From contig OZ243913.1 in assembly GCA_965213705.1 (NCBI GenBank), forward strand, positions 3,616,001-3,680,000: a DNA stretch of 64,000 nucleotides, read 5' to 3'. Each line of letters begins with the position of its first letter. The stretch's first letter is position 1. The position numbers and the translations under genes were made by a program. The notes beneath the pieces are model-generated. The model was not told the origin of the DNA, did no database searches, and was given only the letters and a program-made list of their open reading frames with translations. Shown in pieces: positions 37,425 to 52,986 of this stretch. The DNA is from Trueperaceae bacterium. Its GTDB lineage: Bacteria; Deinococcota; Deinococci; Deinococcales; Trueperaceae.

Positions 37425-37703
37425 ATGTACGGTTCCGCTTCGAGCATCACGGCGACCCAGGAGCAAATTTCCACCGAACTAGACGGTGAAGTCGTCATCC
37501 TCAACACGAACACGGGCAAATACTTTACGCTGGACGGCGTCGGCACCGAGGTGTGGCAGCACCTACAAAACGCGGTCACAGTCTCAGACCTGTGCGCCAA
37601 GGTTGAGGCCCGTTACGACGTTGCGCCGGAACGCTGCCGGGCCGACGTGCTGGCGCTGTTGCAAGACCTCACCGAGGCAGGACTCGTCGAGCGTGTCGAC
37701 TAA
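37425..37703 (+). CDS. PqqD-family RiPP recognition element (lasso B1-like)
   Basis: ELDGEVVILN..TGKYF.LD.VG..VW..L....TV..L...V...YDV..ERC..DV..LL.DL...GLV. GGAGG SD. Confidence 0.92.
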   Translation: MYGSASSITATQEQISTELDGEVVILNTNTGKYFTLDGVGTEVWQHLQNAVTVSDLCAKVEARYDVAPERCRADVLALLQDLTEAGLVERVD

Positions 37704-38121
37704 GCTCGCCAAGATACCCGCCTTTTTCGCGAGGTCGGCTCTGGAGCGCCGGCTTTTGCTCGAGGCCCTGGCCACTCTCTGGCTCGTTCGGCTCGGGTTG
37801 TGGCTGCTGCCTTTCGGCGCGCTGCTGCGCCTCGTCCGGCGTCCGCTGGGAACGTCTAGCGTCGAAGTCGGCCGTTTGACAAAAACATTCACGGTTGTGA
37901 GCCGCTACGTGCCGCGTGCCACTTGCCTTGCCCAAGCCCTCGCCGGTCAACGTCTGTTGGCGGCTCACGGGCATTCCAGCCGCTTGCGAATAGGCGTTCG
38001 CAAAGACGGCGCGCGGTTGGGGGCGCACGCGTGGCTCGAGCATCAGGACCGCGTGGTTGTCGGACTCGTGTCCAACCTGACCGACTACCACCCCTTGTCC
38101 GGCGAGGGAGAACGACCATGA
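37693..38121 (+). CDS. Lasso-peptide B2-type transglutaminase-like leader peptidase
   Basis: TCLAQALA...LRIGVRK...AHAWLE with catalytic Cys/His. GTG start overlaps the PqqD stop. Confidence 0.9.
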   Translation: MSTKLAKIPAFFARSALERRLLLEALATLWLVRLGLWLLPFGALLRLVRRPLGTSSVEVGRLTKTFTVVSRYVPRATCLAQALAGQRLLAAHGHSSRLRIGVRKDGARLGAHAWLEHQDRVVVGLVSNLTDYHPLSGEGERP

Positions 38122-38241: not shown

Positions 38242-39402
38242 ATGAAACGAATTTTGTGGGGCAGCCTGTTAATTTTTATTCTTGCTGCTTGTGGCACGAG
38301 CAGCAATCCAGAAGTGCCGCAAGCGACGAACACCTTTAGTTTTACTGTGGACCCGGCAGCGCGAAGCGTCGAACTCGCTGCAGCACCGGCTGGTGCTCTT
38401 GCCGCTCGAGCCGAAGATGGCAGCCGTGTTTTAGTACCGCGTACGGACTTGAGTTTGAAGTCCTACACCTTTACTTTCTTGCCCGGCAACATACTCGCCA
38501 TCAACGCGAGCTTTAGAAACATTTCGGGTAAAACTTTCAAAAACTTGACGTTCAGCCGCGCTGCAAGCTCAGACAATATAGTCAGTTCGAGCGAGCCGGA
38601 CGTGGTCGAAACTTTGGAGTCTGGCGCGTCCACCAGCACTTTGCGCTTTATGGTGCAACACCAAGGTCAGCGCTTTGCTTACGAAGTAGACGCGAGTGCG
38701 ACGGTTGCAGCCCCAGAGCCTGGTGGAACCGAATGTACCAATCCGGTAAACATCCCCGACGACGTTCTTAGGCGGCAAATTCGGTCGGTGATTGGTAAAT
38801 CTCAAGGCGACATCACTTGCGCTGATATGGCGAGCCTGGAATCGTTGAGCATCGAGTCGCTTTACTCTTACGTTGGTGAGGTTTACAACCTGGAGGGATT
38901 GCAGTTTGCGGTGAACCTGACAGAGCTCCGAGTTAGTTTCACTGAACTTACCGACCTCCGCCCTTTAAGTGGTCTCACAAGCTTGCAGGGTTTGGATGTT
39001 GCTTCCAACAAAATTGATGATATCAGTCCACTACAGGGATTGACGAACCTGACGGGCCTGTCTGTGGCTAACAACAACATAAGCGACATCAGCGCAGTGA
39101 GCGACCTGCTCAGGTTGGAGCGCCTCATCTTGGCCTTCAACCCTATCACCGACATCGGCCCCTTGAGCGGTCTGGAAGACTTACAAATACTTCTCATTTG
39201 TAACAACCGGATCAGCGACCTCGGTCCCCTTATTGCCAACCCAGGTATCGGGAACGGCGACGACTTCATCGATTTGTCCGTGAACCCTTTTGACCTTTCT
39301 CCCGGTTCAAAAGCCTCACAAGACATCGAAACCCTAGAGCGTCGCAACCCGAACATTCCCAACATTTTCGGAACCGAAGCTCAGCCGGGCAGATGTAGCT
39401 AA
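38242..39402 (+). CDS. Internalin-like LRR lipoprotein 1
   Basis: Lipobox LAAC, a shared N-terminal beta domain, cap CTNPVNIPD..LR...GDITCADM, and 22-residue LRRs (L..L.L..N.I.D..PL..L). Confidence 0.9.
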   Translation: MKRILWGSLLIFILAACGTSSNPEVPQATNTFSFTVDPAARSVELAAAPAGALAARAEDGSRVLVPRTDLSLKSYTFTFLPGNILAINASFRNISGKTFKNLTFSRAASSDNIVSSSEPDVVETLESGASTSTLRFMVQHQGQRFAYEVDASATVAAPEPGGTECTNPVNIPDDVLRRQIRSVIGKSQGDITCADMASLESLSIESLYSYVGEVYNLEGLQFAVNLTELRVSFTELTDLRPLSGLTSLQGLDVASNKIDDISPLQGLTNLTGLSVANNNISDISAVSDLLRLERLILAFNPITDIGPLSGLEDLQILLICNNRISDLGPLIANPGIGNGDDFIDLSVNPFDLSPGSKASQDIETLERRNPNIPNIFGTEAQPGRCS

Positions 39403-39412
39403 GGAGCTTGAC

Positions 39413-39571
39413 ATGCATAAACCCGAGCCACAACCCAAGCCCACCGGCGGGCAACCCGTCAACGTGAACAAGCAGCCCTACGAGACACCGGTTTTTAAGG
39501 AACACGGCAGCGCCAAAAGTATCACTTTGCAAACCTTCTTCGGCACCTTCTCGCCGCCCGCCTCGGACTAA
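39413..39571 (+). CDS. RiPP precursor peptide 1 (52 aa)
   Basis: AAGGAG SD. MHKPEPQPKPTGGQPVNVNKQPYETPVFKEHGSAKSITL-QTFFGTFSPPASD. Not in the ORF track. Confidence 0.9.
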   Translation: MHKPEPQPKPTGGQPVNVNKQPYETPVFKEHGSAKSITLQTFFGTFSPPASD

Positions 39572-39638
39572 ACGTTACTTTCCAGCACCCCTACGCAGGG
39601 ATACTTAAAACTCATCGAAAACTTCAGGAGAGAGTCTG

Positions 39639-42209
39639 ATGAAACGGATTTTGTGGGGCAGCTTAATAGTTTTACTCTTGGCAGCTTGCGGAACCAGTAA
39701 GCCAGACCTGCCGCAGGCTACAAATACTTTCAACTTCACCGTCAACCCGGCGGCGCAGAGCGTTGAACTCGCTTCGACACCTGCGGCTGGATTGACCGCT
39801 CAAGCCGAGGACGGTAGCCGCGTTCTCAAACCCGCCACAGAACTGAGCTTGGAGTCTTTCACATTTACTTTCTTGCCAGGTAATTTGCTCGCCATCGACG
39901 CGGTTTTCAAAAACGTCTCAGACCAAACGTTTACCAACCTGACGTTCAGTAGGGCGGCGGGCTCAGACGACATCGTCAGCTCGACTGAGCCGAACGTGGT
40001 CGCAACCTTGGCACCTGGCGCGTCCACCGGCACGCTGCGCTTTACGGTACAGCATAGAGGCCAACCTTTTACCTATGCGGTAGAGGCTAGGGCGACCGTG
40101 GGGATGACGGGAGGGGCTGGCTGTACCGACCCGGTGAACATTCCTGACCGTTTTTTGAAAGAAGGTACACGCATCCAGCTTCAACTTCAAGACAGCGAGA
40201 TTACCTGCGCGGACATGGAGAGGTTGACCGAACTCGACATCTATGAGTTAAGGGACGACATTGATGAAGAATTTCCCGAGCTGGTTGATGTCGGTACTCT
40301 TGAAGGGCTTCAGTTCGCGGTAAACCTCGAGTTCCTGGCGCTGCCTATTAACAGTAACAACAAAGACCTGCTCCAACCTTTGACGGGGCTCACAAGTCTC
40401 ACGAAACTTAGAATCGGCTTGTCCGGTGGGCGTCTTGACAACATCGACATTCCAGAGGAGTTTGAGAATTTTTACAATTTCAGCTACCTCGGCAGTTTGA
40501 TCAACTTGACTGACCTGAGACTATTCGCCTACCAAACGGATTACAGTTGGATAAGCAGTTTGACTAAGTTGACGACTCTCGACCTCAGCTTCAACGAACT
40601 CATAGAAGACTTGACTCCGTTCAGTACCCTGACCAACCTGACCGACTTCAACCTGTCTACCAACTCAGTCAGCGAGTTAGGTCCTTTGGTCTCAAATCCC
40701 GGCATCGGCGAAGGTGACGACCGGCTCGACTTAGACCAGAACTGTTTAGTTCTCACACCGGGGTCGGAAGACCTCGAGGCTGTCAATACCCTGGAGAGCC
40801 GCAACCCGGACGTTCAGAACGTTTTCTTAGGCACCCAAAAGAAGGACGCCTTTTGCGGCAGGACGCCCGACAGCGGCGCTGACCTGAGTCTGTTCGTCAA
40901 CGCTTTTAAACGTGGCGACGACGGCTTCGGCACTGTCGACACCGTGCAGGTCGGGGATGTTGTGGAATTCGTCGTAACCATTGATAACAACGGCCCCGAC
41001 ACGGCGTTCGACATCGTTGTCACAGCTGAGGTTGATAATGCCGCCGGACTCGAGTCATTTACATTTGAGGCCGTTGCTGACTCCAACTGCGACACCGTGC
41101 TAGACGGACCCGAAACCTACAAGCTGGTTTGCACTTTGACAGAAGCGTTGCCCGCTGGTGGTGAGGTTGGTCAAGTAGACCCTAGATTCTTCCTCGGTTT
41201 CGCAGCCGAGGCGGACAACGTCGGAACCATGACCGCGCGGTTTGAGGTATCTTCTAATACTACCAACGACTTCGATTCGTCCAACAACGATGATGTTAAA
41301 GAGATTAGTGTTTTGCCGGAGAACTCCGGCGATGAGTGTACCGACCCCGTGAATATTCCCGACGACACCTTGAGGCAATCCATTCGTGATGCGTTGAACA
41401 AGCCCGAAGGCGACATCACTTGCGCAGACATGGCGAGCTTGACCGAGTTGGTTTCACGCATCGAAAACGAGGTTGACCTCGAACAAATCGGCAACCTGGA
41501 AGGCATTCAGTTCGCAAAGAATCTCGAAACACTTGATTTTTTCGTCTCATGCTGCGAAGTAGTTCCCGACTTCTTCGAACCCCTGAGCGGTCTCGCCAAC
41601 CTGACTACCTTGAAAATTTTCAACATTCGGGACTTTCAGGAACTGGACTTTGACGACCTGGACTTCAGTCCTTTAGGTAGTCTCTCCAACCTTACCGTCC
41701 TCAGCCTTCCAGAAACCCAAGTAAGTAATATCGACTTTTTAAGTGGTTTGACCAACCTGTCCACCCTCGACCTTTCCGACAACGTCATAGACGACTACAG
41801 TCCCTTGAGCAACCTGACCGCCCTGAAAAAGCTGGACCTTTCGTCGGACAGGTTGTACTTAGAGTTTTTCGGAGTTGAGGACATCGGCTTTCTGAGTGGT
41901 CTTACCGCTTTGACCGACCTCGACCTCTCGAGTAACAACGTCAGTGACCTCAGTCCGTTGAGCGGCCTCACCCAGTTGGTCAATCTCGACCTTTCTTCCA
42001 ACCTCGTCACTGACATCAGCCCTTTGGTCATCAATGAGGGAATTGGCGACGGTGATGATGAACTTGTCTTAGTGAGCAACTGCTTGGATACGAGTTCGGG
42101 TTCTCAAGCGCTTGGTGACGCTGACACCCTAGAAAGCCGTAACCCAGATGTTCAGAATGTCTTCCTGGGAATGCAAGGAGATGATGAGGCTTGCAGCCAG
42201 GAAAACTAG
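39639..42209 (+). CDS. Internalin-like LRR lipoprotein 2 (two LRR blocks plus DUF11-like domain)
   Basis: Lipobox LAAC and two capped LRR blocks separated by ADLSL...VTIDNNGPD...SNN (DUF11-like). Confidence 0.9.
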   Translation: MKRILWGSLIVLLLAACGTSKPDLPQATNTFNFTVNPAAQSVELASTPAAGLTAQAEDGSRVLKPATELSLESFTFTFLPGNLLAIDAVFKNVSDQTFTNLTFSRAAGSDDIVSSTEPNVVATLAPGASTGTLRFTVQHRGQPFTYAVEARATVGMTGGAGCTDPVNIPDRFLKEGTRIQLQLQDSEITCADMERLTELDIYELRDDIDEEFPELVDVGTLEGLQFAVNLEFLALPINSNNKDLLQPLTGLTSLTKLRIGLSGGRLDNIDIPEEFENFYNFSYLGSLINLTDLRLFAYQTDYSWISSLTKLTTLDLSFNELIEDLTPFSTLTNLTDFNLSTNSVSELGPLVSNPGIGEGDDRLDLDQNCLVLTPGSEDLEAVNTLESRNPDVQNVFLGTQKKDAFCGRTPDSGADLSLFVNAFKRGDDGFGTVDTVQVGDVVEFVVTIDNNGPDTAFDIVVTAEVDNAAGLESFTFEAVADSNCDTVLDGPETYKLVCTLTEALPAGGEVGQVDPRFFLGFAAEADNVGTMTARFEVSSNTTNDFDSSNNDDVKEISVLPENSGDECTDPVNIPDDTLRQSIRDALNKPEGDITCADMASLTELVSRIENEVDLEQIGNLEGIQFAKNLETLDFFVSCCEVVPDFFEPLSGLANLTTLKIFNIRDFQELDFDDLDFSPLGSLSNLTVLSLPETQVSNIDFLSGLTNLSTLDLSDNVIDDYSPLSNLTALKKLDLSSDRLYLEFFGVEDIGFLSGLTALTDLDLSSNNVSDLSPLSGLTQLVNLDLSSNLVTDISPLVINEGIGDGDDELVLVSNCLDTSSGSQALGDADTLESRNPDVQNVFLGMQGDDEACSQEN

Positions 42210-42284
42210 CTGACACAAGCGTTTCTTGACGCGAGGTTTAGTCAGACAGTAGAACATCAGTCGTAAGTAGTGTAAGGAGTAAGT

Positions 42285-42446
42285 GTGAGCAAATACCTAA
42301 AGTCCCAACCCTTGTTACAAAACGTTGCTGAAAACGAAAAAGGCAAGAAAGTTTACCAAACCCCCATTCTCAAAGAACACGGTAGCGCCAAGGACATCAC
42401 CCTGCAAACCTTCTTCGGCACCTTCTCGCCGCCCGCTTCCGACTAA
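42285..42446 (+). CDS. RiPP precursor peptide 2 (53 aa)
   Basis: AAGGAG SD and GTG start. MSKYLKSQPLLQNVAENEKGKKVYQTPILKEHGSAKDITL-QTFFGTFSPPASD. Not in the ORF track. Confidence 0.9.
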   Translation: MSKYLKSQPLLQNVAENEKGKKVYQTPILKEHGSAKDITLQTFFGTFSPPASD

Positions 42447-42454
42447 TCTCCTCG

Positions 42455-42484
42455 GTCCGGTGGCCCCACGCGGGGCTACCGGAC
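42455..42484 (+). promoter_or_regulatory. Conserved hairpin after precursor 2
   Basis: GTCCGGTGGCCCC-ACGC-GGGGCTACCGGAC, with no U tail. Confidence 0.65.
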
Positions 42485-42552
42485 TCATCAGCGTCGTTAC
42501 CACTCGAGCGCCCTGTTGCTTTACAGTAAGCACAAGACATGAAGGAGGAACT

Positions 42553-44640
42553 GTGAAACGACGATTATGGGGAAGCTTTTTGGTGTTGCTTCTGGCCGCT
42601 TGCAGCTCGAGCCCGGTAGACCTGCCGCAGGCCGGCAATACTTTCAGCTTTGCGGTTGACCCGGCGGCGCAAAGTGTCGACCTCGTCTCGACGCCTGCTG
42701 CGCTGAGTAACCAAGCCGAAGACGGTAGCCGCGTCCTCGTACCGGGTGAAGACTTGAGCCTGGAATCTTACACATTCGTATTTTTACCCGGCAACGTGCT
42801 CACCATCGACGCGGTTTTCAAAAACGTTTCAGACCAAACTTTTACCAACCTGAGGTTCAGCCGCGGGGCGGGCTCGAGCAACGTTGTCAACTCGACCGAG
42901 CCGGACGTGGTCGCAACCCTGGCACCCGGCGCGTCCACCGGTACGCTGCGTTTTGAAGTGCAGCACAGGGGCCAAAGTTTCAGCTACGAGGTCGAAGCTA
43001 CCGCGACCGTGGAGACGGGCGGGGCCGACTGCGCCGACCCGGTAACGATTCCGGACGAGGTTCTGAGGCAAGCCGTCCGGGACGCTCTGAACAAACCCGA
43101 AGGTGACATCACCTGCGCCGACATGGCGAGTTTGTCCGAATTGAGCGTGATAGGTCGCCAGGGCGAGAACGGAATTCCTAACAGGTTCGTCGAAAACTTA
43201 GAGGGTTTGCAGTACGCCGTGAACCTGATGACGCTGCAGCTTATGGGCAACCTTACCCTCAACGACGTCACTCTGCTGAGCACGCTTACCGAACTGACCG
43301 ACCTGGACCTGAGCGGCAACCGCATCGGTGATATCGGTCCGTTGAGCACGCTGGTCAACCTCACGAGGCTCGACCTCGGTTTCAACCTGGATATCGAGGA
43401 CGTCAGCCCGCTGAGCGGACTGACCGGGCTCGAGACCTTGGTCCTCAACATCAACCAGATTACCGACCTGGCCCCGCTGAGCACGCTTACAAACTTGCGC
43501 AGGCTCGACCTCGGCACCAACTTTGTTGCCGACCTTGGTCCTTTAGCAACCAACACAGGCGTCGGAAACGACGACGACCGCATCGACCTGAGGTTCAACT
43601 GTTTGGACGTCTCACCGGGTTCGCAAACGCTCGAGAACGTCGCCGCACTGGAAAGCCGCAACCCGGATGTCCAGAACGTTTTCTTGGGAACGCAAAGAGA
43701 GAGTGACGAGGACTGCGGTCGGCTGCCGCCACCGCCTCCCGCCGAAGAGTGTAGCGACCCGGTGAACATTCCCGACGACACTCTGCGAAAAGAACTGCGT
43801 TTGCAACTTCAACTCCTTGAAGACAGCGAAATCACCTGCTCGGACCTGCTACGTCTAACCGAGTTCAGCTATCAAGATATAGACGTCTTCATCACTAATT
43901 TGGAGGGGTTGCAGTACGCCGTCAACCTGATATCGCTCGAGATTGTCGACGGTTTTCTTACAGACATCAGTCAAGTGAGCGGCCTCACCAAGTTAACAAG
44001 ACTGGATTTGAGCCGCAACGAACAAATTAGGGACACCACACCGCTGAGTGGTTTGGTGAACCTCAGATACCTTGACTTAGCGAGCAATGCCATTGAAGAC
44101 GTCAGTTCACTAAACGGTTTGACCAACCTCGAAATCCTCTACCTGTCCAATAACCCTATCAAGCACATAAGGCCACTTAGCGGTCTGACTAATCTCAGGG
44201 AACTTTACCTAAACGGCGTTGCTGCGCTCGAGGACTACAGCGCTCTACAAGCCCTACCCAACTTGCAAGTTCTCAACCTGTCAAACCGGTTTCTTTTTGA
44301 AGATTTGAAAATAGTCGACATCAGCTCTTTGAAAGGGCTTACCAGCCTGACCCAACTGAATTTGTCCGACAATAAAATCTCCGATATCGGTTCGCTAAGC
44401 AACCTGACAAACTTGAGTAGGCTTGATTTATCGGAAAACTTCGTACGTGACCTTAGCCCCCTTGTGGCAAATACAGGTCTTGGGAACGGCGAAGACAGCA
44501 TCGAGTTGGGGAACAACTGTCTGGACACTTCCCCCAAATCACAGGCTTCACAAGATGTTGCAATTATCGAAGCGAGAAACCCATCAGTTGACAATGTTTT
44601 CGGCTTCGATGTTCCGAAGCTACCGTCACAGTGCAATTAA
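42553..44640 (+). CDS. Internalin-like LRR lipoprotein 3 (two LRR blocks)
   Basis: GTG start after AAGGAGG. MKRRLWGSFLVLLLAAC lipobox and two capped LRR blocks joined by PPPPP. Confidence 0.9.
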   Translation: MKRRLWGSFLVLLLAACSSSPVDLPQAGNTFSFAVDPAAQSVDLVSTPAALSNQAEDGSRVLVPGEDLSLESYTFVFLPGNVLTIDAVFKNVSDQTFTNLRFSRGAGSSNVVNSTEPDVVATLAPGASTGTLRFEVQHRGQSFSYEVEATATVETGGADCADPVTIPDEVLRQAVRDALNKPEGDITCADMASLSELSVIGRQGENGIPNRFVENLEGLQYAVNLMTLQLMGNLTLNDVTLLSTLTELTDLDLSGNRIGDIGPLSTLVNLTRLDLGFNLDIEDVSPLSGLTGLETLVLNINQITDLAPLSTLTNLRRLDLGTNFVADLGPLATNTGVGNDDDRIDLRFNCLDVSPGSQTLENVAALESRNPDVQNVFLGTQRESDEDCGRLPPPPPAEECSDPVNIPDDTLRKELRLQLQLLEDSEITCSDLLRLTEFSYQDIDVFITNLEGLQYAVNLISLEIVDGFLTDISQVSGLTKLTRLDLSRNEQIRDTTPLSGLVNLRYLDLASNAIEDVSSLNGLTNLEILYLSNNPIKHIRPLSGLTNLRELYLNGVAALEDYSALQALPNLQVLNLSNRFLFEDLKIVDISSLKGLTSLTQLNLSDNKISDIGSLSNLTNLSRLDLSENFVRDLSPLVANTGLGNGEDSIELGNNCLDTSPKSQASQDVAIIEARNPSVDNVFGFDVPKLPSQCN

Positions 44641-44650
44641 GGAGATGCGT

Positions 44651-44809
44651 ATGAAAAAACCTGATTTGTTTTTCAAGTCCGCCGACGAACAACTTACCGA
44701 AGTGGATAAGCAACCTTATGTGACGCCGGTTCTCAAAGAACACGGCCACGCCAAAGACGTCACCCTGCAAACCTTTTTCGGTACTTTTTCGCCGCCTGCT
44801 TCGGACTGA
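44651..44809 (+). CDS. RiPP precursor peptide 3 (52 aa)
   Basis: AAGGAG SD overlapping the upstream stop. MKKPDLFFKSADEQLTEVDKQPYVTPVLKEHGHAKDVTL-QTFFGTFSPPASD. Confidence 0.9.
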   Translation: MKKPDLFFKSADEQLTEVDKQPYVTPVLKEHGHAKDVTLQTFFGTFSPPASD

Positions 44810-44817
44810 CCGCCCTG

Positions 44818-44847
44818 TTCCGGTGGCCCCACGCGGGGCCACCGGAA
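44818..44847 (+). promoter_or_regulatory. Conserved hairpin after precursor 3
   Basis: TTCCGGTGGCCCC-ACGC-GGGGCCACCGGAA perfect 13-bp stem, with no U tail. Confidence 0.65.
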
Positions 44848-44929
44848 AGTGTGAAATATCTTAAATACGGTATTGGGCGAGCAGCGTGTTATTTTACGGT
44901 TTTGTGAGGGGGCGATGAGGGAGGATGTC

Positions 44930-46444
44930 GTGAAGCGACTTTTTTGGGGTGGATGGCTCGTTCTTTTGCTGGCGGCTTGTGGTGGGCGCGGCCCCGAGGC
45001 GAAGGTGACGGGCGTGTTTGTTTTGAGCGTGGACCCAGGTACACAGACCGGCGAAGTTTCGGTGGTGGGGACGGGTGCGGCCGAGCGGGACGGCGCTCGC
45101 GCGCTCGTTCCCGGCGAGGACTTAGCAGTCGCGGGCTCAGAGTTCGTTTTTCTGCCCGACAACGTCGTCAGCTTGGAGCTGGCTTTCAAAAATGTCTCGT
45201 CTTGCACCTTTAGGAACTTGGCGTTCAGCCGAGGCGCGGACTCCCGAGCCGTGGTGAGTTCGGTCGAGCCCGCCGTTACGAGTGCCGATTTAGGCGGGGG
45301 CGCGCTCGAGCCCGCCGAAACCACGCGCACGTTAACTTTCGGCGTCACTCACACGGGCAAGCCGTTTGTCTACGCCCTCGCGGCCGAGGCCGACGTGACG
45401 TGCGCCCAAGCGGCGAGCGCCGACCTGCAGACCAACCTGGACGCCCGCTCCGGGAGTACCGTCGCCAAGGGCAAGCCTTTTACCTACTACGCCAACGTCA
45501 GGAACAACGGACCCGACGAGGCTGCGGGCGTCGCGCTCACGGTGACGGTGCCGTTTCCGGTCAGCGTGCCGGACGGCTGCAGCCAGAGCGGGAGCACGCT
45601 GACCTGTGACCTGGGCAAAGTCGGGGCGGACGGGAGCAAGGGCGTGCTCGTCACCGGGACGGCCGCCGAAGCGGGTTCGTACAAGGTGTCCGCCACAGTT
45701 TCCGCAGGCACGCCCGACCCGGACTCGCGCAACAACAGCGTGACAAAAACTTTCGAAGTCTCCGTGCCCACCCAAACCTGCACCGGTCCTGTGCAGATTC
45801 CCGACGCGGCCTTGGAGGCCGCCGTCCGCGCCAAGCTGAAGATTCCGAGCGCCGGCTTGACTTGTACGGACATGGCGAAGTTGACAACCCTCAGGGCCGA
45901 CGCCGACGTTGAGAGCGAAGATGACCCGGACCTTATCAGCAACCTGCAAGGGTTGCAGTTCGCAACCAACCTGACCACCCTAAGCTTAAACGACAACAGC
46001 GTCAGCGACTTGGGTCCGCTGAAGGGCCTTACGAAATTGACGGAGCTTAACTTGATTACCAACCGCATCAGCGACCTGGGTCCGTTGAGCGGCCTGACCG
46101 GCCTGAAACGCCTCACTCTCAACTTCAACGAGGTTACAAACCTGACGCCGCTCAAAGGGCTGACGTCTTTGACAGACCTGCAACTCGCCGTCAACCGAAT
46201 AAGCGACGTGACGGCGTTGAGCGGTTTGACAAACCTCAACATTCTGGACCTTTACTTCAACACCGTCACGAACATCAACCCCCTGGTCGCCAACAGCGGT
46301 GTCGGGAACGCGGACGACTTCGTCGACCTGAGCAACAACTGTCTGGACGCGGCCGGTGTCAACGCCGCACGCAGCCTCGAGGCCAGAAGCCCAAACAACG
46401 TCGTGAAGTTCGGCAGACAGGGGGGCGAGCAGTGCACGCCGTGA
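44930..46444 (+). CDS. LRR lipoprotein 4 with DUF11-like domain
   Basis: GTG start after GGAGG. Lipobox LAAC, the shared N-domain, ADLQ...VRNNGPD...DPDSRNN, then a capped LRR block. Confidence 0.88.
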   Translation: MKRLFWGGWLVLLLAACGGRGPEAKVTGVFVLSVDPGTQTGEVSVVGTGAAERDGARALVPGEDLAVAGSEFVFLPDNVVSLELAFKNVSSCTFRNLAFSRGADSRAVVSSVEPAVTSADLGGGALEPAETTRTLTFGVTHTGKPFVYALAAEADVTCAQAASADLQTNLDARSGSTVAKGKPFTYYANVRNNGPDEAAGVALTVTVPFPVSVPDGCSQSGSTLTCDLGKVGADGSKGVLVTGTAAEAGSYKVSATVSAGTPDPDSRNNSVTKTFEVSVPTQTCTGPVQIPDAALEAAVRAKLKIPSAGLTCTDMAKLTTLRADADVESEDDPDLISNLQGLQFATNLTTLSLNDNSVSDLGPLKGLTKLTELNLITNRISDLGPLSGLTGLKRLTLNFNEVTNLTPLKGLTSLTDLQLAVNRISDVTALSGLTNLNILDLYFNTVTNINPLVANSGVGNADDFVDLSNNCLDAAGVNAARSLEARSPNNVVKFGRQGGEQCTP

Positions 46445-46571: not shown

Positions 46572-47594
46572 ATGAAAAAACTGAGTTGTTTAGTTCTCGT
46601 CGTTTTGTTGCTCAGCGCCTGCAGCGCACCCAACTCGCAGCCTACCGAACCGCCGCCGACTGAGCCTGTCGACCAGCCGCAGCCCGTCGCCGACCTGCAA
46701 GTCAACTTCGACGAGCGCTCGGCAGACCCCGTCGCCCAAAACGGTACTTTCGAATACTACGTCAGTGTCAGGAACAACGGCAGCGCCGACGCAGAAGGCG
46801 TGCAGCTTACGGTCACAGTGCCCTTTCCGGTCACCGAAGTCCCGCCAGAATGCGGCTCGAGCGACAGCACGTTAGAGTGTGACCTTGGCAACCTCGACGT
46901 GGGCTTTACCGAAGGGGTTCTCGTTTCAGGCCAAGCCGTTGAAGAAGGAATTTTTCTGGTATCAGCAAATGTTTCTGCCGCCACGAATGACCCTGACCTG
47001 AGTAATAACAGCACCACTGAAAGTTTCGAGGTTTTTCTGCCGACATCGCCTTCGGACTTGCAAGGCCGAATTGCGAATTGGTCTGTAGGTGAAGCTGAGC
47101 TGAGCACGGTGCTTTACGATCAAGCGGAAAAGTCTACTAAAGTCGCTTCGGGGACTGTAGGCGCGGACGGAAAGCTCGACATCTTTTTGGGCAAAAGTGT
47201 ACCGGCCGATGTCCTGTCAAGAATTTCCGCCTGTTCGGGGTTGATGCAGACGAACCCGGGCACGCGCCAAAACACCTTCTCGGCTCTTCAGGTCATGCGG
47301 GGTCAGACAGAGGTAGGCCGGGTGGCCCTCGCCTCGAGCCAAGCGGTTCTAACTGAAGGTCTGCGTAAGGTAGGCGACTACTACGTCCAGCAAACCTACG
47401 CGGACGCCGCCAACACGGTGACGGGGAGCTGCGCGCTCGGCGGGGTGGTCGACGCGGTTTTCAAGTATGACCTCAAACTCAACCAGGGTTGGAACACCGT
47501 CACCTTTAAACTCACCAGAAAAGACGGTGACGCCCAAACCCTCGAGCTGTCGTCGGGTACCCCACAAGGGGCCGCCTGGTTTTTCGCGCCCTAA
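46572..47594 (+). CDS. Lipoprotein with DUF11-like domain (no LRR)
   Basis: Lipobox LSAC and ADLQV...VRNNGS...DPDLSNN, similar to the module in 44930..46444. C-terminal YDLKLNQGWN. Confidence 0.85.
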   Translation: MKKLSCLVLVVLLLSACSAPNSQPTEPPPTEPVDQPQPVADLQVNFDERSADPVAQNGTFEYYVSVRNNGSADAEGVQLTVTVPFPVTEVPPECGSSDSTLECDLGNLDVGFTEGVLVSGQAVEEGIFLVSANVSAATNDPDLSNNSTTESFEVFLPTSPSDLQGRIANWSVGEAELSTVLYDQAEKSTKVASGTVGADGKLDIFLGKSVPADVLSRISACSGLMQTNPGTRQNTFSALQVMRGQTEVGRVALASSQAVLTEGLRKVGDYYVQQTYADAANTVTGSCALGGVVDAVFKYDLKLNQGWNTVTFKLTRKDGDAQTLELSSGTPQGAAWFFAP

Positions 47595-47611: not shown

Positions 47612-48622
47612 ATGCCCGCCGCCCCCAAGACTGCCGCCCCCAAAACTGCCGGCTTGGTCATGGTGGGACACGTTGCCGTGGGGCTCGAGGGTGACGCTAC
47701 CCACCTCGGCGCCTTGTTGGAGGCGTTGGGGCGGCTGTTCGTGCTGGGTTCGGAGCCTACCGCAAAAGGCGTCACTATTCGGCTGAGCGAGTCGGGGTGG
47801 GCGCTCGGGCCGGGTAAAGAGGTCTACAAAGCCGCTGGCTTGCAGGTTGTCGAGACGGCGTCGGGCTTTTATTTGCGCTGCGGCGCGTCGGTGTTCGAAG
47901 TGTCTCCCGGCGTGACGGGGCGGTTGTACCTCGGGCCGGACTTTTGGGAGCACACCTCGTACGAGCGGCGCGAGTTCTTTTTGCTCGGGCTACTCATGCT
48001 GCTGCGCCCGCTGGGGCTGTACGGTTTGCACGCCTGCGGGCTACGCAAACCTGACGTGTGCGGTGACGCGGGCGGTGACGTGGGCGCGCTGTTGGTGGGC
48101 GGCAGCGGCGCGGGCAAAACGACCACCACCTTGAACCTCATCCGGCACGGTTGGGACTACCTGTCCGACGACGCGGTGTTGCTGCGTGAAGCGGGCGAAA
48201 GAGTGGAAGCCGTAGCCTTTCGCAAAGGGTTTTCTTGCACGCCGAAGACACTTCTCGCTTTTCCCGGTTTGCGCGGCGTGGAAGAGTTCGGTGACCCTTC
48301 GGGCAAGCGGGTCGTGGACTTAGGGGCAACGTTTGGGGGCGGTTTCGTACCGCGTTGCACGCCGCGGTTGCTGCTGTTTCCCCGGCTACACGCGGGACGC
48401 ACGGAGCTTCGGCCGCTACCGAACGCGCTGGCCCTCGTCCGGCTCAGCCAGCAGAGTGGCGGCATCATGACGGCCGCTAGGGGGGACAACGTGGTGTCGC
48501 GCGGCCAGCTCGAGCTGCTCAAACGCCTCGTGCGTCAGGCGCAGAGTTTCGAACTTTTACTGGGCGAGGACGCGCTGCACGATTTGTCTTTGGTGAGTAA
48601 GTTATTGGAGGATTCATTCTAG
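47612..48622 (+). CDS. HPr-kinase-related (RiPP-associated) kinase
   Basis: LHACGL, Walker A GGSGAGKTT, YLSDD. Confidence 0.85.
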   Translation: MPAAPKTAAPKTAGLVMVGHVAVGLEGDATHLGALLEALGRLFVLGSEPTAKGVTIRLSESGWALGPGKEVYKAAGLQVVETASGFYLRCGASVFEVSPGVTGRLYLGPDFWEHTSYERREFFLLGLLMLLRPLGLYGLHACGLRKPDVCGDAGGDVGALLVGGSGAGKTTTTLNLIRHGWDYLSDDAVLLREAGERVEAVAFRKGFSCTPKTLLAFPGLRGVEEFGDPSGKRVVDLGATFGGGFVPRCTPRLLLFPRLHAGRTELRPLPNALALVRLSQQSGGIMTAARGDNVVSRGQLELLKRLVRQAQSFELLLGEDALHDLSLVSKLLEDSF

Positions 48623-49641
48623 TGCGCGTCGTCGTCGAACTCACCAACCGCTGCAACTTGGCGTGCCAGCACTGTTTTTCGGGACGGCACGGCGGCAACG
48701 ACGACCTACCCCTGGCGGTCCTAAACAACATCTTGGCGGGCGCGGCCTCGGTGGGCCTCACCCACCTCACCTTTACCGGCGGCGACCCGACGCTGTACAA
48801 ACACTTCGACACCTTACTGGACCGCGTGACGCAGGAAGGTTACCGCTACAGTTTGGTTACGAACGGCTTTAACTTCGCGCAGGTTTATCCGAAGGTTTTG
48901 AAGTACCGGGGCGGTCTCGAGCAAGTCACCTTCAGCTTAGACGGCGCGACCGACGCCACGCACGCCCGGTTGCGCGGGAGTAAGTCATTTGCTCGAGTCC
49001 TGGCGGCGATGGCGCTGTGCCGCGAGCACGAGGTTCCTTTTACCAACAACATGGTCGTCACCAAGCACAACGCGCACGAACTCGCCGCGGCCGCCGAGCT
49101 TGTGCTGGCGCAAGGCAGCGCGGGCCTGCGCTTTGGGCACCTAATGCACTCGCCACTGACGACGGCCCAGGACTTCGACCTGAGCTTAGACGAGCGCCGC
49201 GGGGTCGAGCGCGAAATCTGGGCGCTGCAAAAACGCTACGCCGCGCGGCTGCCCGTTGCGATGGCTCCCGGCTTCACCACCGCCGACCCGCTGCCCTGCG
49301 CGCCGCTGCACCTGCAAGAGGTCAACGTGGACTACCGCGGCTACCTGACCAAGTGCTGCCATCTTTCGAGCCACGGCGCGGGCGTGGGCACGGACGACGT
49401 GGTGTGCAACCTCGCCGAGACCGACTTTCGTGAGGGCTTTCTCAAGCTGTTTTTGCAAAACGAAGGATTCAAACGCGCTAAGGCCGCGCGGCTTCAGGCC
49501 AGCCCGAGCGAGAGCGATACAAGTCCCTGCTGGTACTGCGCCAACCACTTCAAAAAGGTCGACTGGCTGCGGAACTTTGAGGGGCATCCGTGGCTCGAGC
49601 ACCTGTGGGACGCCGCACCCGCCGAGGACGTGCTCGCGTGA
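48622..49641 (+). CDS. Radical SAM enzyme with Cys-rich C-terminal (SPASM/twitch-like) region
   Basis: ELTNRCNLACQHC, TGGDP, SLDG...H...RG. C-terminal C...G.LTKCC...CNL...CWYC. Confidence 0.92.
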   Translation: MRVVVELTNRCNLACQHCFSGRHGGNDDLPLAVLNNILAGAASVGLTHLTFTGGDPTLYKHFDTLLDRVTQEGYRYSLVTNGFNFAQVYPKVLKYRGGLEQVTFSLDGATDATHARLRGSKSFARVLAAMALCREHEVPFTNNMVVTKHNAHELAAAAELVLAQGSAGLRFGHLMHSPLTTAQDFDLSLDERRGVEREIWALQKRYAARLPVAMAPGFTTADPLPCAPLHLQEVNVDYRGYLTKCCHLSSHGAGVGTDDVVCNLAETDFREGFLKLFLQNEGFKRAKAARLQASPSESDTSPCWYCANHFKKVDWLRNFEGHPWLEHLWDAAPAEDVLA

Positions 49642-50792
49642 CCGTTCCCTCCTCCGCACCAGCAGGATTTCGGCTGCTCGTCGCCTGCTCGAGGGCGCAC
49701 CTGGAACCCGGTAACGCGGCGACGCTCGACGAACTTCTCGGGCTACCCCTGGACTGGGACGAAGTGCTCGCCGAAGCGCGCCGGCACGGCGTCACGCCGC
49801 TGTTGCACCGCCACCTGTCGGGCCGGGCTGAGGTCCCCGCCGCCCCGCTCGCCGAACTCAGCACCTACGCCCGCCGCAACGCCGTTCACAACCTCCTGCT
49901 GTCAAAAGAACTGCTCCGGGTGCTGGGGGAACTTGAGGGTGCGGGTGTGCGCGCCGTGCCCTACAAAGGCCCGACGCTCGCCGTCGCCGCCTACGGCGAC
50001 GTGGCGCTGCGCTCGTTTCAGGACCTCGACGTCATCGTGCGCCCGAACGAGTTCGAACCCGCTCTGGACGCGCTGCAAACGTCTAGCTACGCCCTCGTCG
50101 AGAGTGCCGAGGGCCGGTTTCACGCGACGCTCAAACACGAGGAAACGGGCGTGCTGGTCGAACTCCACCGCGACGTGGTGCGGCGTGAGCGTTTTCCGAC
50201 CGGGCTCGAGCTTACCGCTATGTGGGAAAGGCTCACGGAGGTCGGTCTGCTTGGTCAAAGAGTGCCGAGCTTCGCACCCGAAGACACGCTTTTGCTCCTG
50301 TGCCTCCACGGAGCCAAACACGAGTGGCAAGGGCTCACCTGGCTGTGCGACCTCGCCGAATACCTGCGCGCTCACCCAAGCCTGGACTGGGACCGAGTGC
50401 TGCAGCAAGCCGAGCGGGCACGCGTGACGCGGGTGCTGCTCCTCGGGCTGGCGCTGGCGGAGCATGTTTTGGCCCCGCCGCTGCCCGAAACGGTGCAGTG
50501 TTTGGTAAAGAGTGACCGCAGTTTGCCCGGTTTGCAGGCGACTATCATCGTGAGGTTCTACGAAGACGCAAACCTGCTCGAGCGGGGCGCCCTACCCTAC
50601 CGCCTGCGCGCCGGGATGCGCTCGAGGTTGGAGGACAAGCTGCCCGTTTACAGAAGTTTTGCAGCCCGGCTGCTGCGCCCGAACGAGCAGGACAAACGGG
50701 CCGTCAAGTTGCCGAAACGGCTCGAGCCTTTGTACTACCTCGTCCGGCCGCTGCGCCTGCTAAAGGACGGCGTGGCTCAAAAACGACGCTGA
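49638..50792 (+). CDS. Nucleotidyltransferase family protein (NTP_transf_5-like)
   Basis: YKGP.LA...YG....R...DLDVIV, VELH, LCLHGAKH.W..L.WLCDL. GTGA overlap with the rSAM gene. Confidence 0.88.
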   Translation: MTVPSSAPAGFRLLVACSRAHLEPGNAATLDELLGLPLDWDEVLAEARRHGVTPLLHRHLSGRAEVPAAPLAELSTYARRNAVHNLLLSKELLRVLGELEGAGVRAVPYKGPTLAVAAYGDVALRSFQDLDVIVRPNEFEPALDALQTSSYALVESAEGRFHATLKHEETGVLVELHRDVVRRERFPTGLELTAMWERLTEVGLLGQRVPSFAPEDTLLLLCLHGAKHEWQGLTWLCDLAEYLRAHPSLDWDRVLQQAERARVTRVLLLGLALAEHVLAPPLPETVQCLVKSDRSLPGLQATIIVRFYEDANLLERGALPYRLRAGMRSRLEDKLPVYRSFAARLLRPNEQDKRAVKLPKRLEPLYYLVRPLRLLKDGVAQKRR

Positions 50793-50816: not shown

Positions 50817-52217
50817 TCACTGGTTTGCGCTGACCCGCTCGAGCTTGAGTTCCCGCCTGAGACCCCGCTCGCTCGTACCGAGCGTGCCGTCTTCGATAAA
50901 ACCCGTATAGACTTCGTCGTTGCGGTTGGGTAGCAACGCGTCGATAACCCAAGTGGAGGCTTGGCCGTCTTCAGCCGTCGTTTTAGCCCGGAAGCTGACG
51001 GGGGCGTAGTAGTCGGCGGGTGCCAAATACTTTTGCTCACTACCTCCTTGGACTTCACCTTGTAGGTCGCGAACGGTGCCGGAAGCGTCCGTAACTGTTC
51101 CGCTTACGCCATAGTGCCACTCGTCCAAAAAGGTTGCCTCGAGGTCCAGATAAAGCGTTTCAGGCGCAGGGTCGGGAAGGGTTTGCAAAAGTTGTCCCGT
51201 TTCCAACTCGAACATTTGAACAACGCCGTCGGTGGTGGCCGCGACGACGTAGCGCTCGTCACGACTCAAAACCGGCGGCGTGTACAGCGCGAAAGGTGCC
51301 GAAGGCGCGCGCACTCCGGCGCGGCGTTCGCCCGTGGCGATGTCCAAAAGCTCGAGTTGGGTCGTGTTGGTATCGTAGGGCGGAGCAAACAAAGACGCGG
51401 TTAGTACGGCGGTGCCGTCGCCGCTGAACCCCAGCAGGTAGCTTGCCTCAAATTCGGCTGGTGTATCTAAGTAGGCACCACTGGCGAAATCCCACCTATC
51501 GATGAGGCGTCCGAGCCATTGCACCCACAGTTGCCGCCCGTCCGGCGTAAACAGGGTGCGGTAGAGTGACGAGCCGTTGTATTTGACACTCGTGAATTGG
51601 CGGACGAGCTGCCCCGTTTTGAGGTCCCAGACGAAATAAGTGCTGGTGCTGCCCCCTACCAGCAAGTAGCTGCCGTCGGGGCTGAAAATCAACTCACCAA
51701 CGGCAACGGGGTGCTCGAGCGTATAAAGCAAATCTCCAGTTTTCGCGCTCCACACTTTGACGGTATTTTCATCTCTGTAATACAGAGCGGTTGCAAAGAG
51801 GTCGAAGTTGGGTGAAAGAACGCTCGTGGCACTCAGTCCGTCCTGCTCGACCACATCAAAGTCCAGCAGGGTTTTCCCGGTAGCCAAGTCCACAATTTGA
51901 ACCGCGGGGCCGCTGACCCCCAACCGCGTGCCGTCGGCGCTGAACGAAACTTGACCCGGCCCGAGGTCGATTTTTGTACTCGTGAAAGTCTGCGTGTCGT
52001 AAAGGTCGAACCCGTAAGAGGTCGCCGCTGCAAAGCTCGAGCCGTCCGGGTTGAAGGCCAAGCCGGACACGCTCTCGCCCGTGACTTTGCCGACCTTGGC
52101 CTGCCAGGTGCCGCGCAAGACGCTCGGGTCGCTGGCAAAGTCGACCGATTTGCGCGTGTCTAAGCAGCCGCTGAGCAGCAACGCGAGTGAAACGAGCAAC
52201 AGGTTTCGACGTAACAC
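50817..52217 (-). CDS. WD40/beta-propeller lipoprotein
   Basis: Lipobox LSGC and repeated FSPDG...VWD blades. Confidence 0.85.
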   Translation of the reverse strand: MLRRNLLLVSLALLLSGCLDTRKSVDFASDPSVLRGTWQAKVGKVTGESVSGLAFNPDGSSFAAATSYGFDLYDTQTFTSTKIDLGPGQVSFSADGTRLGVSGPAVQIVDLATGKTLLDFDVVEQDGLSATSVLSPNFDLFATALYYRDENTVKVWSAKTGDLLYTLEHPVAVGELIFSPDGSYLLVGGSTSTYFVWDLKTGQLVRQFTSVKYNGSSLYRTLFTPDGRQLWVQWLGRLIDRWDFASGAYLDTPAEFEASYLLGFSGDGTAVLTASLFAPPYDTNTTQLELLDIATGERRAGVRAPSAPFALYTPPVLSRDERYVVAATTDGVVQMFELETGQLLQTLPDPAPETLYLDLEATFLDEWHYGVSGTVTDASGTVRDLQGEVQGGSEQKYLAPADYYAPVSFRAKTTAEDGQASTWVIDALLPNRNDEVYTGFIEDGTLGTSERGLRRELKLERVSANQ

Positions 52218-52330: not shown

Positions 52331-52843
52331 TTAGCGAAAATTCTCGAGAATAGCTTTGACCGACGGCGAGGTGCTTTGCGGACTCAGTGAAGCTGTCGTC
52401 AACTCGCTGTCGTAGGCAAGATTCAGCGTGAGGCTGCTGCTCTGACCGTCTATAACGAAGATGAGTTTGCCCGTTAGGGTTTTGGCGTCAGTGCCGAAGG
52501 TACCCTCAACCTTGATTTGGTCGCCGACGTCGTCCGTTATGCTGAGAGTCAGCGTCGTACCTTCGACTGAACCCTCCAGGGTGCAACACGTAACCGGGTT
52601 ATCGTACTGGTCTATGTAACCGAAGGTACCGGACACCGCGGTACCCGTTTGGGTGAAGCCGAAACCCACGTACATACCGCTGCCCGAATCCGGGCTGGTG
52701 GCGGTGCCAAACCAAAAATCGTTGTCGAGGTTGATGACGCTGGGGACGGGTTTCGGGGCTGGAGCGGCCGGGCTCGGGCCGGTGGACGAGCACGCCGCCA
52801 ATCCGAAGACGAGGAGGAGCAACACGACGTTTCTTACTTTCAT
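52331..52843 (-). CDS. Hypothetical lipoprotein
   Basis: MKVRNVVLLLLVFGLAAC lipobox, beta-rich body, AAGGAG SD. Confidence 0.8.
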   Translation of the reverse strand: MKVRNVVLLLLVFGLAACSSTGPSPAAPAPKPVPSVINLDNDFWFGTATSPDSGSGMYVGFGFTQTGTAVSGTFGYIDQYDNPVTCCTLEGSVEGTTLTLSITDDVGDQIKVEGTFGTDAKTLTGKLIFVIDGQSSSLTLNLAYDSELTTASLSPQSTSPSVKAILENFR

Positions 52844-52986
52844 ACGAACTCCTTTGGGCATAGTGACCTGCAGGTCTCAACCAGTGTAGGTGACGCGTCC
52901 TTACAAAATCCTTACCCTCGAGCGGCGTGGACAACGCAAAGCGCGGCACGTTTCCAACTCGTCGGGGTGGGTAAAATAAGGGTGTT

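Follow-up and report, generated by a model that had tools for sequence, protein, structure and literature searches.

Lasso peptides are made from precursors with a YxxPxL leader and a Thr at −2, which are handled by a B1 protein, the recognition element (RRE) of a ribosomally synthesised and post-translationally modified peptide (RiPP), and by a B2 leader peptidase, and their macrolactam closes on an Asp or Glu at core position 7-9. The same leader, B1 protein and peptidase (NF033521, PF05402 and NF033537) occur in the locus described here, an operon of a Trueperaceae bacterium within a window of 64,000 nucleotides (the whole stretch of DNA that was analysed: contig OZ243913.1, positions 3,616,001 to 3,680,000, part of a single-contig genome of 4.25 Mb). 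Unlike a lasso cluster, the window cassette lacks the asparagine-synthetase-like cyclase, and its peptide core, QTFFGTFSPPASD, has its sole acid at position 13 and no ring-forming acid. No lasso cyclase was found near the cassette in this genome or in 5 further genomes, the own genome holding one partial PF00733 match (23.5 bits, positions 2-77 of 354) some 1 Mb away. In the window the precursors alternate with lipoproteins bearing leucine-rich repeats (LRRs); across many phyla, the cyclase-less lasso-leader operon is accompanied not by LRRs but by exported proteins sharing a domain of about 120 residues, here called X. The matured, Phe-rich peptide might be a docking tag, used one-to-one for the X domain of exported lipoproteins with the LRRs as interchangeable cargo, a proposal for which belief and doubt are evenly balanced.

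Several described systems share parts of this machinery. The paeninodin and pseudomycoidin clusters (PadeK; PsmK with PsmN) have a split B1/B2 pair, a lasso-type leader with Thr at −2, a nucleotidyltransferase-family gene and, in the available part of the source, the same kinase His-Lys-Asp-Asp motif (PMC9266682). They differ in that the window has a radical S-adenosylmethionine (SAM) enzyme, no cyclase and a tie to secreted X-domain proteins, and in that their conserved C-terminal Ser is absent, window cores ending in Ser-Asp and many homologues in Pro. The SynChlorMet cassette (ScmC/D/E/F; TIGR04248-04251) likewise brings together PqqD-like, kinase-like and radical SAM proteins, and among NCBIfam models the radical SAM enzyme fits ScmE or ScmF best; the scores nevertheless fall far below the cut-offs (86 bits against 400; RRE 40 against 100; ScmC 23 against 125), and SynChlorMet has two radical SAM genes where the present operon has one, together with B2 and NTP_transf_5. 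With the HPr-rel-A system (TIGR04352/04353) the sole contact is the RRE (TIGR04353, 35.3 bits against 35), HprK-related kinase A scoring 23 and 46 bits against 200. RRE-dependent radical SAM RiPPs share an RRE, a CxxxCxxC enzyme and a conserved short precursor in one operon. Fosfazinomycin biosynthesis (FzmF/K/U), in the available part of its source, would share kinase activation followed by nucleotidyltransferase ligation to a ribosomal peptide (PMC13622209), although its asparagine-synthetase-like enzyme and phosphonate genes do not recur here. Leader handling resembles the phosphorylated-lasso pathway, yet the system is not a member of the lasso, SynChlorMet or HPr-rel-A groups. Judged by family scores, the radical SAM enzyme appears to represent a subfamily without a name (the 86 bits above being its ScmE score); its nearest named relatives are Trueperaceae, and no NCBIfam model reached its cut-off for either this enzyme or the kinase.

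The RRE and B2 genes are placed upstream of the lipoprotein array, and the genes for a DUF11 lipoprotein, the kinase, the radical SAM enzyme and the NTP_transf_5 protein downstream of it, with starts and stops overlapping. Catalytic motifs are present in the window enzymes (Table 1), the fold of B2 is transglutaminase-like by family match, and no solved relative of the NTP_transf_5 protein was found at E<=0.01.

A tandem array of lipoproteins and precursors

The array consists of three LRR lipoprotein genes, each with a precursor open reading frame (ORF) of 52-53 aa at its 3' side, and all three precursors end in the core given above. The original prediction, made from the letters of the window, had described a unit of lipoprotein, precursor and hairpin repeated three times; the lipoprotein-precursor pair does recur threefold, but a strong hairpin follows units 2 and 3 alone, and unit 1 keeps a 4-bp remnant. 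The overlap of the precursor Shine-Dalgarno sequence with the LRR stop codon (TAAGGAG) that it reported for units 1 and 3 is present at 39400-39406 and 44638-44644. In unit 2 the same TAAGGAG (42273-42279) lies 64 nt 3' of the LRR2 stop; within 42207-42285 it stands in the LRR2 frame behind two earlier stops, and LRR2 may once have ended there, as its counterparts in units 1 and 3 do. A fourth paralogue, LRR4 (about 44915-46444), has the same N-domain and no precursor, and had been overlooked.

The contrast first noted between lipoproteins of very different length (Table 1) and an invariant core is borne out. The three cores differ at 7 nucleotide sites, all synonymous (P ~6e-5 under random single-base change), while the precursors agree at no more than 3-7 of their first 20 residues and at 12-13 of the 17 positions of the leader motif. 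Among the lipoproteins, the first LRR blocks of the units are 41-53% identical, the N-domains of units 1-3 68-79%, and paralogous N-domains overall 41-79%. The match to NF033521 falls just below the cut-off for precursors 1 and 3, and precursor 1 matches NF033521/NF033528 weakly, under the cut-off. The 22-residue LRR blocks match Listeria InlA/InlH models, although the class 1 internalin models InlA/InlH/InlK score just 85-184 bits against cut-offs of 1050-1600 (5-17%), and the window proteins differ from internalins in being lipoproteins with an X-type N-domain, no LPXTG end and the LRR as passenger.

Local tandem duplication explains the threefold copy number. Contig depth is flat over the array (2 runs, one sample), which speaks against an assembly artefact and, with paralogous N-domains no more alike than stated above, rules one out. 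Genome G001 (G numbers denote genomes and L numbers surveyed loci) holds two units and an LRR4 orthologue. In base composition LRR1-3 (38242-44640), with a GC content of 52-54%, lie below the genome (61%) and further below LRR4 and the enzymes (63-66%). A fifth LRR protein with the same Cys-capped repeats is encoded at 4049715-4051466 of the genome and has no N-domain or precursor match. The surveyed loci include a degenerate precursor remnant (L015:8905-8952) and an N-domain/LRR gene split into two ORFs (L011:11115-12565).

The hairpins of units 2 and 3 have a stem of 13-14 bp (z −5.1 and −6.0; 0/200 shuffles as stable), whereas the unit 1 remnant is unremarkable (z +0.5; 135/200 shuffles equally stable). 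Strong hairpins of differing sequence stand 3' of 7 of the 8 Trueperaceae precursors tested (z −2.6 to −6.2 against their own shuffles), and z fell below −3 for 1 of 23 precursors from other groups. With just 2 exact copies in the whole genome, the window hairpin is no genome-wide repetitive extragenic palindromic element. Nor does it qualify as an intrinsic terminator, and it was left out of the terminator list because it has no U-tract; hairpins with U-rich tails do occur in the relatives L014 and L189. The GC-rich window hairpins are likely 3' stabilisers of the mRNA.

Domain X and its association with the cassette

Homologous loci were surveyed with a 26-row radical SAM alignment, which matched 523 contig stretches and gave 434 relatives, the best 80 of which were kept; L010-L065 (56 loci, at least 213 bits) are treated as the subfamily and L066-L089 (24 distant radical SAM loci, at most 100 bits) as controls. 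Among the 56 subfamily loci a kinase occurs in 53, an RRE in 45, a precursor in 42, a nucleotidyltransferase in 39, B2 in 37 and an LRR in 2; no precursor was found in the 24 controls. By title the subfamily loci belong to Deinococcota, Planctomycetota (anammox genera included), Chloroflexota, Nitrospirota, Acidobacteriota, and Delta- and Gammaproteobacteria. In homologous cores a linker of 0-8 residues precedes the pattern (F/L)(F/L/M)GxF(S/T/V)P; core length is 5-13 aa, with the shortest of the aligned cores at 6-7 residues. Because 4 of the 45 aligned precursors have Leu or Met in place of the first or second Phe, an obligatory cross-link between two Phe is doubtful, and the pattern by which precursors were selected itself accounts in part for the invariant last Phe of the core. 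Divergent precursors of Acidobacteriota (L200:6130-6310, L203:7330-7490, L205, and gaps 5' of the kinase gene in L201/L202) have KKxFVxP leaders and cores such as TFFQ, FIGTF or FTASFIAP, and adjoin a divergent X and radical SAM enzyme; co-evolution is possible.

The commonest neighbours in the survey are the exported X proteins. The 50 neighbour proteins scanned carry passengers as diverse as VWA, PKD, CBM9, CBM4, subtilase, papain, C-type lectin, NHL and SBBP propellers, laminin G, beta-helix, SpaA and GEVED, with proteases, lectins and adhesins among the classes, and N-domain proteins elsewhere in Trueperaceae have SpaA, GEVED, DUF11, receptor-L or carboxypeptidase-regulatory passengers. 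X contains no membrane helix and is placed C-terminally for the most part, an N-terminal or internal position being possible; no Pfam or NCBIfam family exceeded its cut-off for X or the N-domain.

The N-domain of the window lipoproteins is homologous to X. Comparison of the two profiles with hhalign gave 89.3% (E 2.1e-6, 73 columns), against 1.2% for DUF11, 0.2% for the reversed profile and at most 1.8% for 20 column shuffles, and the X profile directly matches three G004 N-domain proteins (E 9e-4 to 3e-7). The top three ESM Atlas clusters were equal in size for both queries (X 0.92-0.95; N-domain 0.76-0.78, which is lead level). AlphaFold2 models both the LRR2 N-domain (predicted local distance difference test, pLDDT, 87.9) and X (87.8) as confident beta-sandwiches with matching strand order, the all-beta N-domain corresponding to X plus an N-terminal hairpin. 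Asn70 and Phe122 are the only invariant residues of the joint alignment. No Foldseek match to the modelled fold was found at E<=0.001; the best match of the N-domain in fold comparison was white spot syndrome virus (WSSV) VP37 (Z 9.6, root-mean-square deviation (rmsd) 2.5, 107 aligned). The repeat unit is more general than first read, namely an X protein with an FFGxF peptide, in which the LRR is cargo.

X or the N-domain is found in 33 of the 56 subfamily loci, in 23 of the 29 loci of at least 18 kb and in none of the 24 controls. The original prediction had asked whether homologous clusters retain the LRR genes: the LRRs are kept in just 2 of the 56 loci, the N-domain or its homologue X in 33. 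A reverse metagenome scan with X alone gave 260 stretches, 93 relatives and 76 mostly short loci. A cassette gene is present in 32 of these loci, one of them through a weak radical SAM match; among the loci of at least 5 kb the figure is 13 of 23. Whole genomes give a similar picture. Among 61 relatives the radical SAM gene occurs in G000, G001, G002 and G004, all 4 of which have the N-domain, and 56 have neither; G005 (67% complete) has a weak N-domain match and no radical SAM match. In the class of G061 (101 genomes) X occurs in 13 and the radical SAM gene in 13, both together in 12; G147, with X alone, carries a precursor at the end of a contig, and G106, with the enzyme alone, has a weak N-domain match near its own precursor. 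In the phylum of G062, 200 of 201 genomes have neither, and the centre genome alone has either. In the phylum of G063 (Acidobacteriota, 301 genomes) a divergent X occurs in 12 and a divergent enzyme in 10, with both in 7 against 0.4 by chance; a weaker X adjoins the radical SAM enzyme of G584, and G381 and G602 have the enzyme and no cassette gene in the stretch read. One radical SAM match may serve many X matches, as in G141 (21), G154 (16) and G162 (15).

A link between peptide and domain comes from anammox X proteins, whose basic C-terminal tails contain FFGRFxP with the spacing of the core (for example GFFGRFRP). In a protein search a core-like tail of this type ends 31 of 83 X proteins, and in 77 of the 83 no more than 55 residues separate X from the C-terminus. 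The precursor can also move with a distant partner: G004 has an N-domain gene that lies 1.39 Mb away from the cassette and yet has a precursor and hairpin at its 3' side. The functional partnership between peptide and lipoprotein that had been predicted gains support from these fused tails and from the co-occurrence of X and cassette across phyla, and given that the N-domain is homologous to X, so does the predicted route of that partnership, through the conserved N-domain.

A proposed docking tag and its competitors

Starting from what is observed (the gene set, the invariant core, the N-domain-X homology, X and cassette occurring together, and core-like tails fused to X proteins), a pathway can be proposed. 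By family knowledge, the RRE would bind the YxxPxLxxHG leader, the kinase would phosphorylate the peptide, the nucleotidyltransferase would add or ligate a group to the phosphate so made, and B2 would cleave two residues past the conserved Thr; the FFGxF core may be the substrate of the radical SAM enzyme, with a cross-link in which the last Phe takes part as a guess. The genomic pattern suggests that the matured peptide would dock on X by adding a beta-strand and may keep X proteins on the cell surface or within a complex. Stoichiometric use of this kind would account for three traits of the precursor gene: duplication along with each lipoprotein gene, translational coupling to that gene and a stabilising hairpin at the 3' side. 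In its wider form, the proposal is a RiPP-dependent surface display, in which the FFGxF peptide matured by radical SAM enzyme, kinase and nucleotidyltransferase anchors or docks X, a domain that many bacteria, including anammox ones, attach to as many as about 20 of their exported enzymes and adhesins, while in some lineages the tag has become a permanent, fused C-terminal tail; this broader claim falls somewhat short of an even chance. The domain offers an analogy only: gamma-adaptin ear (GAE) domains, which are eukaryotic and cytosolic and 11-16% identical, have a similar sandwich within the common-fold range (Z 6.3-7.0, rmsd 2.8-4.0, 89-105 aligned), and in the available part of the source they bind FGxLV and DFGGF motifs (PMC13581114), which resemble FFGxF.

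Several points weigh against the docking proposal. The precursor has no signal peptide while X proteins are exported, and no exporter family recurred in at least 3 loci among the subfamily neighbours. Pairing, which had been called fixed, is not obligatory, LRR4 and 3 of the 5 G004 N-domain genes having no precursor. X was unseen in 6 of the 29 long loci, and the forward count is partly circular in that the X profile was built from the same loci; relatedness among genomes means that the counts overstate independence, some genomes were reached twice so that counts are not additive, and 5 Acidobacteriota genomes have weak X matches without a radical SAM match. The fused-tail and X-position counts are biased by anammox seeds, and in an AlphaFold2 model of an X protein with a natural fused tail the tail had a pLDDT of 54-69, formed no strand and was undocked. 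The Trueperaceae N-domain has an FxFxVDP strand of its own in cis, which may fill the groove, and fold Z scores other than that of WSSV VP37 are below 8, the range of a common sandwich. A predicted complex between the LRR2 N-domain and the C-terminal 32 residues of precursor 2, unmodified, speaks neither for nor against docking: it scored 0.00 against a mark of 0.32, with the controls unfolded.

Of the competing explanations, covalent decoration or anchoring fares best, although it is unlikely: the peptide, or a peptide-phospho-sugar or peptide-lipid, would be ligated to X or to an envelope carrier in the manner of a sortase or exosortase. C-terminal sorting systems such as PEP-CTERM/exosortase, LPXTG/sortase and the C-terminal domains of type IX secretion share the layout of one processing locus, many exported proteins, unrelated passengers and one mostly C-terminal module, to which the position of X near the C-terminus conforms, and B2 has a transglutaminase-like fold. 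Precedents for the chemistry, each from the available part of its source, are the kinases and nucleotidyltransferase of fosfazinomycin, which ligate a phosphonate to a peptide (PMC13622209), and PsmK and PsmN, which build a phospho-hexose on a lasso precursor (PMC9266682). X, however, is a folded 120-aa sandwich linked to RiPP enzymes. PEP-CTERM- and LPXTG-type signals combine a short motif, a membrane helix and a basic tail at the C-terminus, whereas the fused tails listed have no hydrophobic helix. The cores contain no invariant Ser/Thr or acceptor residue, the joint alignment of N-domain and X offers no invariants beyond Asn70 and Phe122, and the enzymes are cytoplasmic while X is exported.

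Next in order, and improbable, is coupling without contact, in which X would be a split sandwich that an FxFx(V/F)DP strand completes and that passes to an N0-like adaptor, C1; the peptide would serve the same route of export or display as a signal or cofactor, with its gene only carried along by tandem duplication. C1 is an accessory gene product with a signal peptide, weak FecR_C/STN/N0-like matches, a linker and a conserved FKFEFDP tail; it is present at 12 of the 56 subfamily loci and in 7 of the 13 G061-class genomes with X. In L181 C1 genes and X genes alternate, which is how the precursors are arranged in the window, and Acidobacteriota cassettes have a double-N0 form (L200:5097-6038). 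No C1 match was found in the own genome. When N-domains are scored against a profile of the C1 tail, the first strand supplies the best 8-mer in all 15 of 15; the C-terminal tails behind X in L061 and L030 score at background 2e-6 to 3e-6 with the same profile, the core FFGTFSPP fitting less well (2e-3). These matches suggest that an aromatic beta-strand, in cis or in trans, can be accepted by X, and make C1 a candidate adaptor donating a strand to X. C1 also coexists with precursors in genomes. Mutual exclusion of fused tail and C1 was considered and is ruled out by G147, which has both. Moreover, among 46 precursors the nearest labelled upstream gene is B2 in 14 and X in 15. Coupling without contact nevertheless leaves unexplained the core-like tails fused behind X, the precursor that moves with a distant N-domain gene and the selection on all three core copies, and comparison of the whole N-domain and C1 profiles gave just 1.6%.

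X might instead resemble a carbohydrate-binding module and recognise a sugar-phosphate that the kinase and nucleotidyltransferase put on the peptide or on an envelope polymer, which is very unlikely. The CBM2 likeness consists of a weak PF00553 match in 1 of 28 X members (E 0.0015, 19.3 bits, under the gathering score of 24), Atlas clusters at 0.82-0.84 and a fold Z of 7.4. CBM2 domains bind through surface Trp, however, and neither X nor the N-domain has a conserved Trp in its consensus, while the fused tails are plain peptide; PsmN, in the available part of its source, would be the precedent for the sugar (PMC9266682). Least credible is an antimicrobial or signal peptide with the LRR blocks as its receptors or immunity proteins, roles that the original prediction had entertained for the LRRs: LRR domains are commonly peptide-binding and the genes adjoin in the window, but LRRs occur in just 2 of 56 homologous loci, LRR blocks diverge beside an invariant core and better conserved N-domains, no exporter was found among the subfamily neighbours, and passengers other than LRRs (proteases, lectins, adhesins) take their place, in other Trueperaceae proteins as well.

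Features of the window and wider implications

Around the operon, further genes and variants were seen. The DUF11 lipoprotein has two distant paralogues elsewhere in the genome, and its C-terminal module is apparently repeated in G001 (L005:13676-15445, 589 aa). On the minus strand a WD40 lipoprotein (50817-52217) and a 176-aa lipoprotein (52331-52861) converge on the operon end, where G001 has a small lipoprotein of the 176-aa type alone; a Ser/Thr-kinase-like protein with a propeller-like C-terminal region (56048-57913, minus) also occurs in G001 and is not linked to the cassette. Elsewhere a GNAT acetyltransferase is inserted in the cassette (L018, L019, L025, L048, L061, L063; L178:12881-13408) and may cap the peptide N-terminus. 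Apparent single ORFs joining B2 to the nucleotidyltransferase or the kinase (L051:11356-13014, L059:4580-5959, L047:4617-6113) are fusions or frameshift artefacts, and G082 has a second radical SAM gene and a partial RRE copy among transposase-like ORFs (L183:9099-10503), without precursor or X.

Table 1. Features of the operon and array, positions in the window (C1 in surveyed loci)
Feature	Position (strand)	Size or start	Characteristics
RRE / PqqD-type leader-binding protein (B1)	37425..37703 (+)	alternative start 37401	PF05402 E 5.5e-22; NF033536 72 bits, cut-off 80
Lasso-type B2 leader peptidase	37693..38121 (+)		NF033537 83.8 bits, cut-off 33; Cys-His-Glu motifs (TCL, AHAWLE)
Lipoprotein 1	38242..39402 (+)	386 aa	Lipobox Cys17; N-domain (X homologue, residues ~23-160); one Cys-capped LRR block
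Precursor 1	39413..39571 (+)	52 aa	Lasso-type leader YETPVFKEHG...T; core QTFFGTFSPPASD; Shine-Dalgarno overlaps LRR1 stop
Hairpin remnant, unit 1	39589..39600 (+)	4 bp	Vestigial; ACGC loop common to units 2 and 3
Lipoprotein 2	39639..42209 (+)	856 aa	Lipobox Cys17; N-domain, LRR block, DUF11, second LRR block
Precursor 2	42285..42446 (+)	53 aa, GTG start	Core QTFFGTFSPPASD; NF033521 20.2 bits, cut-off 19
Hairpin, unit 2	42456..42483 (+)		GC-rich, no U-tract
Lipoprotein 3	42553..44640 (+)	695 aa	Lipobox Cys17; N-domain and two LRR blocks
Precursor 3	44651..44809 (+)	52 aa	Core QTFFGTFSPPASD; Shine-Dalgarno overlaps LRR3 stop
Hairpin, unit 3	44819..44846 (+)		GC-rich, near-identical to unit 2 hairpin
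Lipoprotein 4 (LRR4)	~44915..46444 (+)	start 44915 or 44930	N-domain, DUF11, LRR block; precursor absent 3'
DUF11 lipoprotein	46572..47594 (+)		C-terminal module 5' of kinase in 6 loci, named ones Trueperaceae
HPr-kinase-like protein	47612..48622 (+)		PF07475 E 1e-6; His, Walker-A Lys, Asp-Asp motifs (LHA, GGSGAGKTT, SDD)
Radical SAM enzyme	48622..49641 (+)		PF04055; CxxxCxxC and conserved C-terminal Cys (PC, CCH, CWYC)
NTP_transf_5 nucleotidyltransferase-family protein	49638..50792 (+)		PF14907 E 5e-61; KGPTL, DLD motifs
C1, examples	L021:5349-5924; L178:8160-8675; L181:9986-15958

By itself the biosynthetic half would be a further variant among RRE-dependent RiPPs, and it is the link to domain X that would set the system apart. 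No description of the cyclase-less cassette with the X system was found in a literature search of open-access papers. In its available part, the RRE-Finder study treated some 300 RREs of lasso type that sit with radical SAM enzymes as false positives and set them aside (PMC7470986); if the docking proposal is true, such cyclase-lacking lasso-type RRE genes could gain a function. The proposal predicts new radical SAM chemistry on a motif of 5-7 residues and a role for the uncharacterised NTP_transf_5 family, and given that the window alone holds five enzymes, a 13-residue core and a 136-residue domain, it is directly testable. More broadly, described RiPPs are mostly weapons, signals or cofactors. 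A structural tag for exported proteins would, if true, be a new use of this chemistry and a new route of protein sorting or display.

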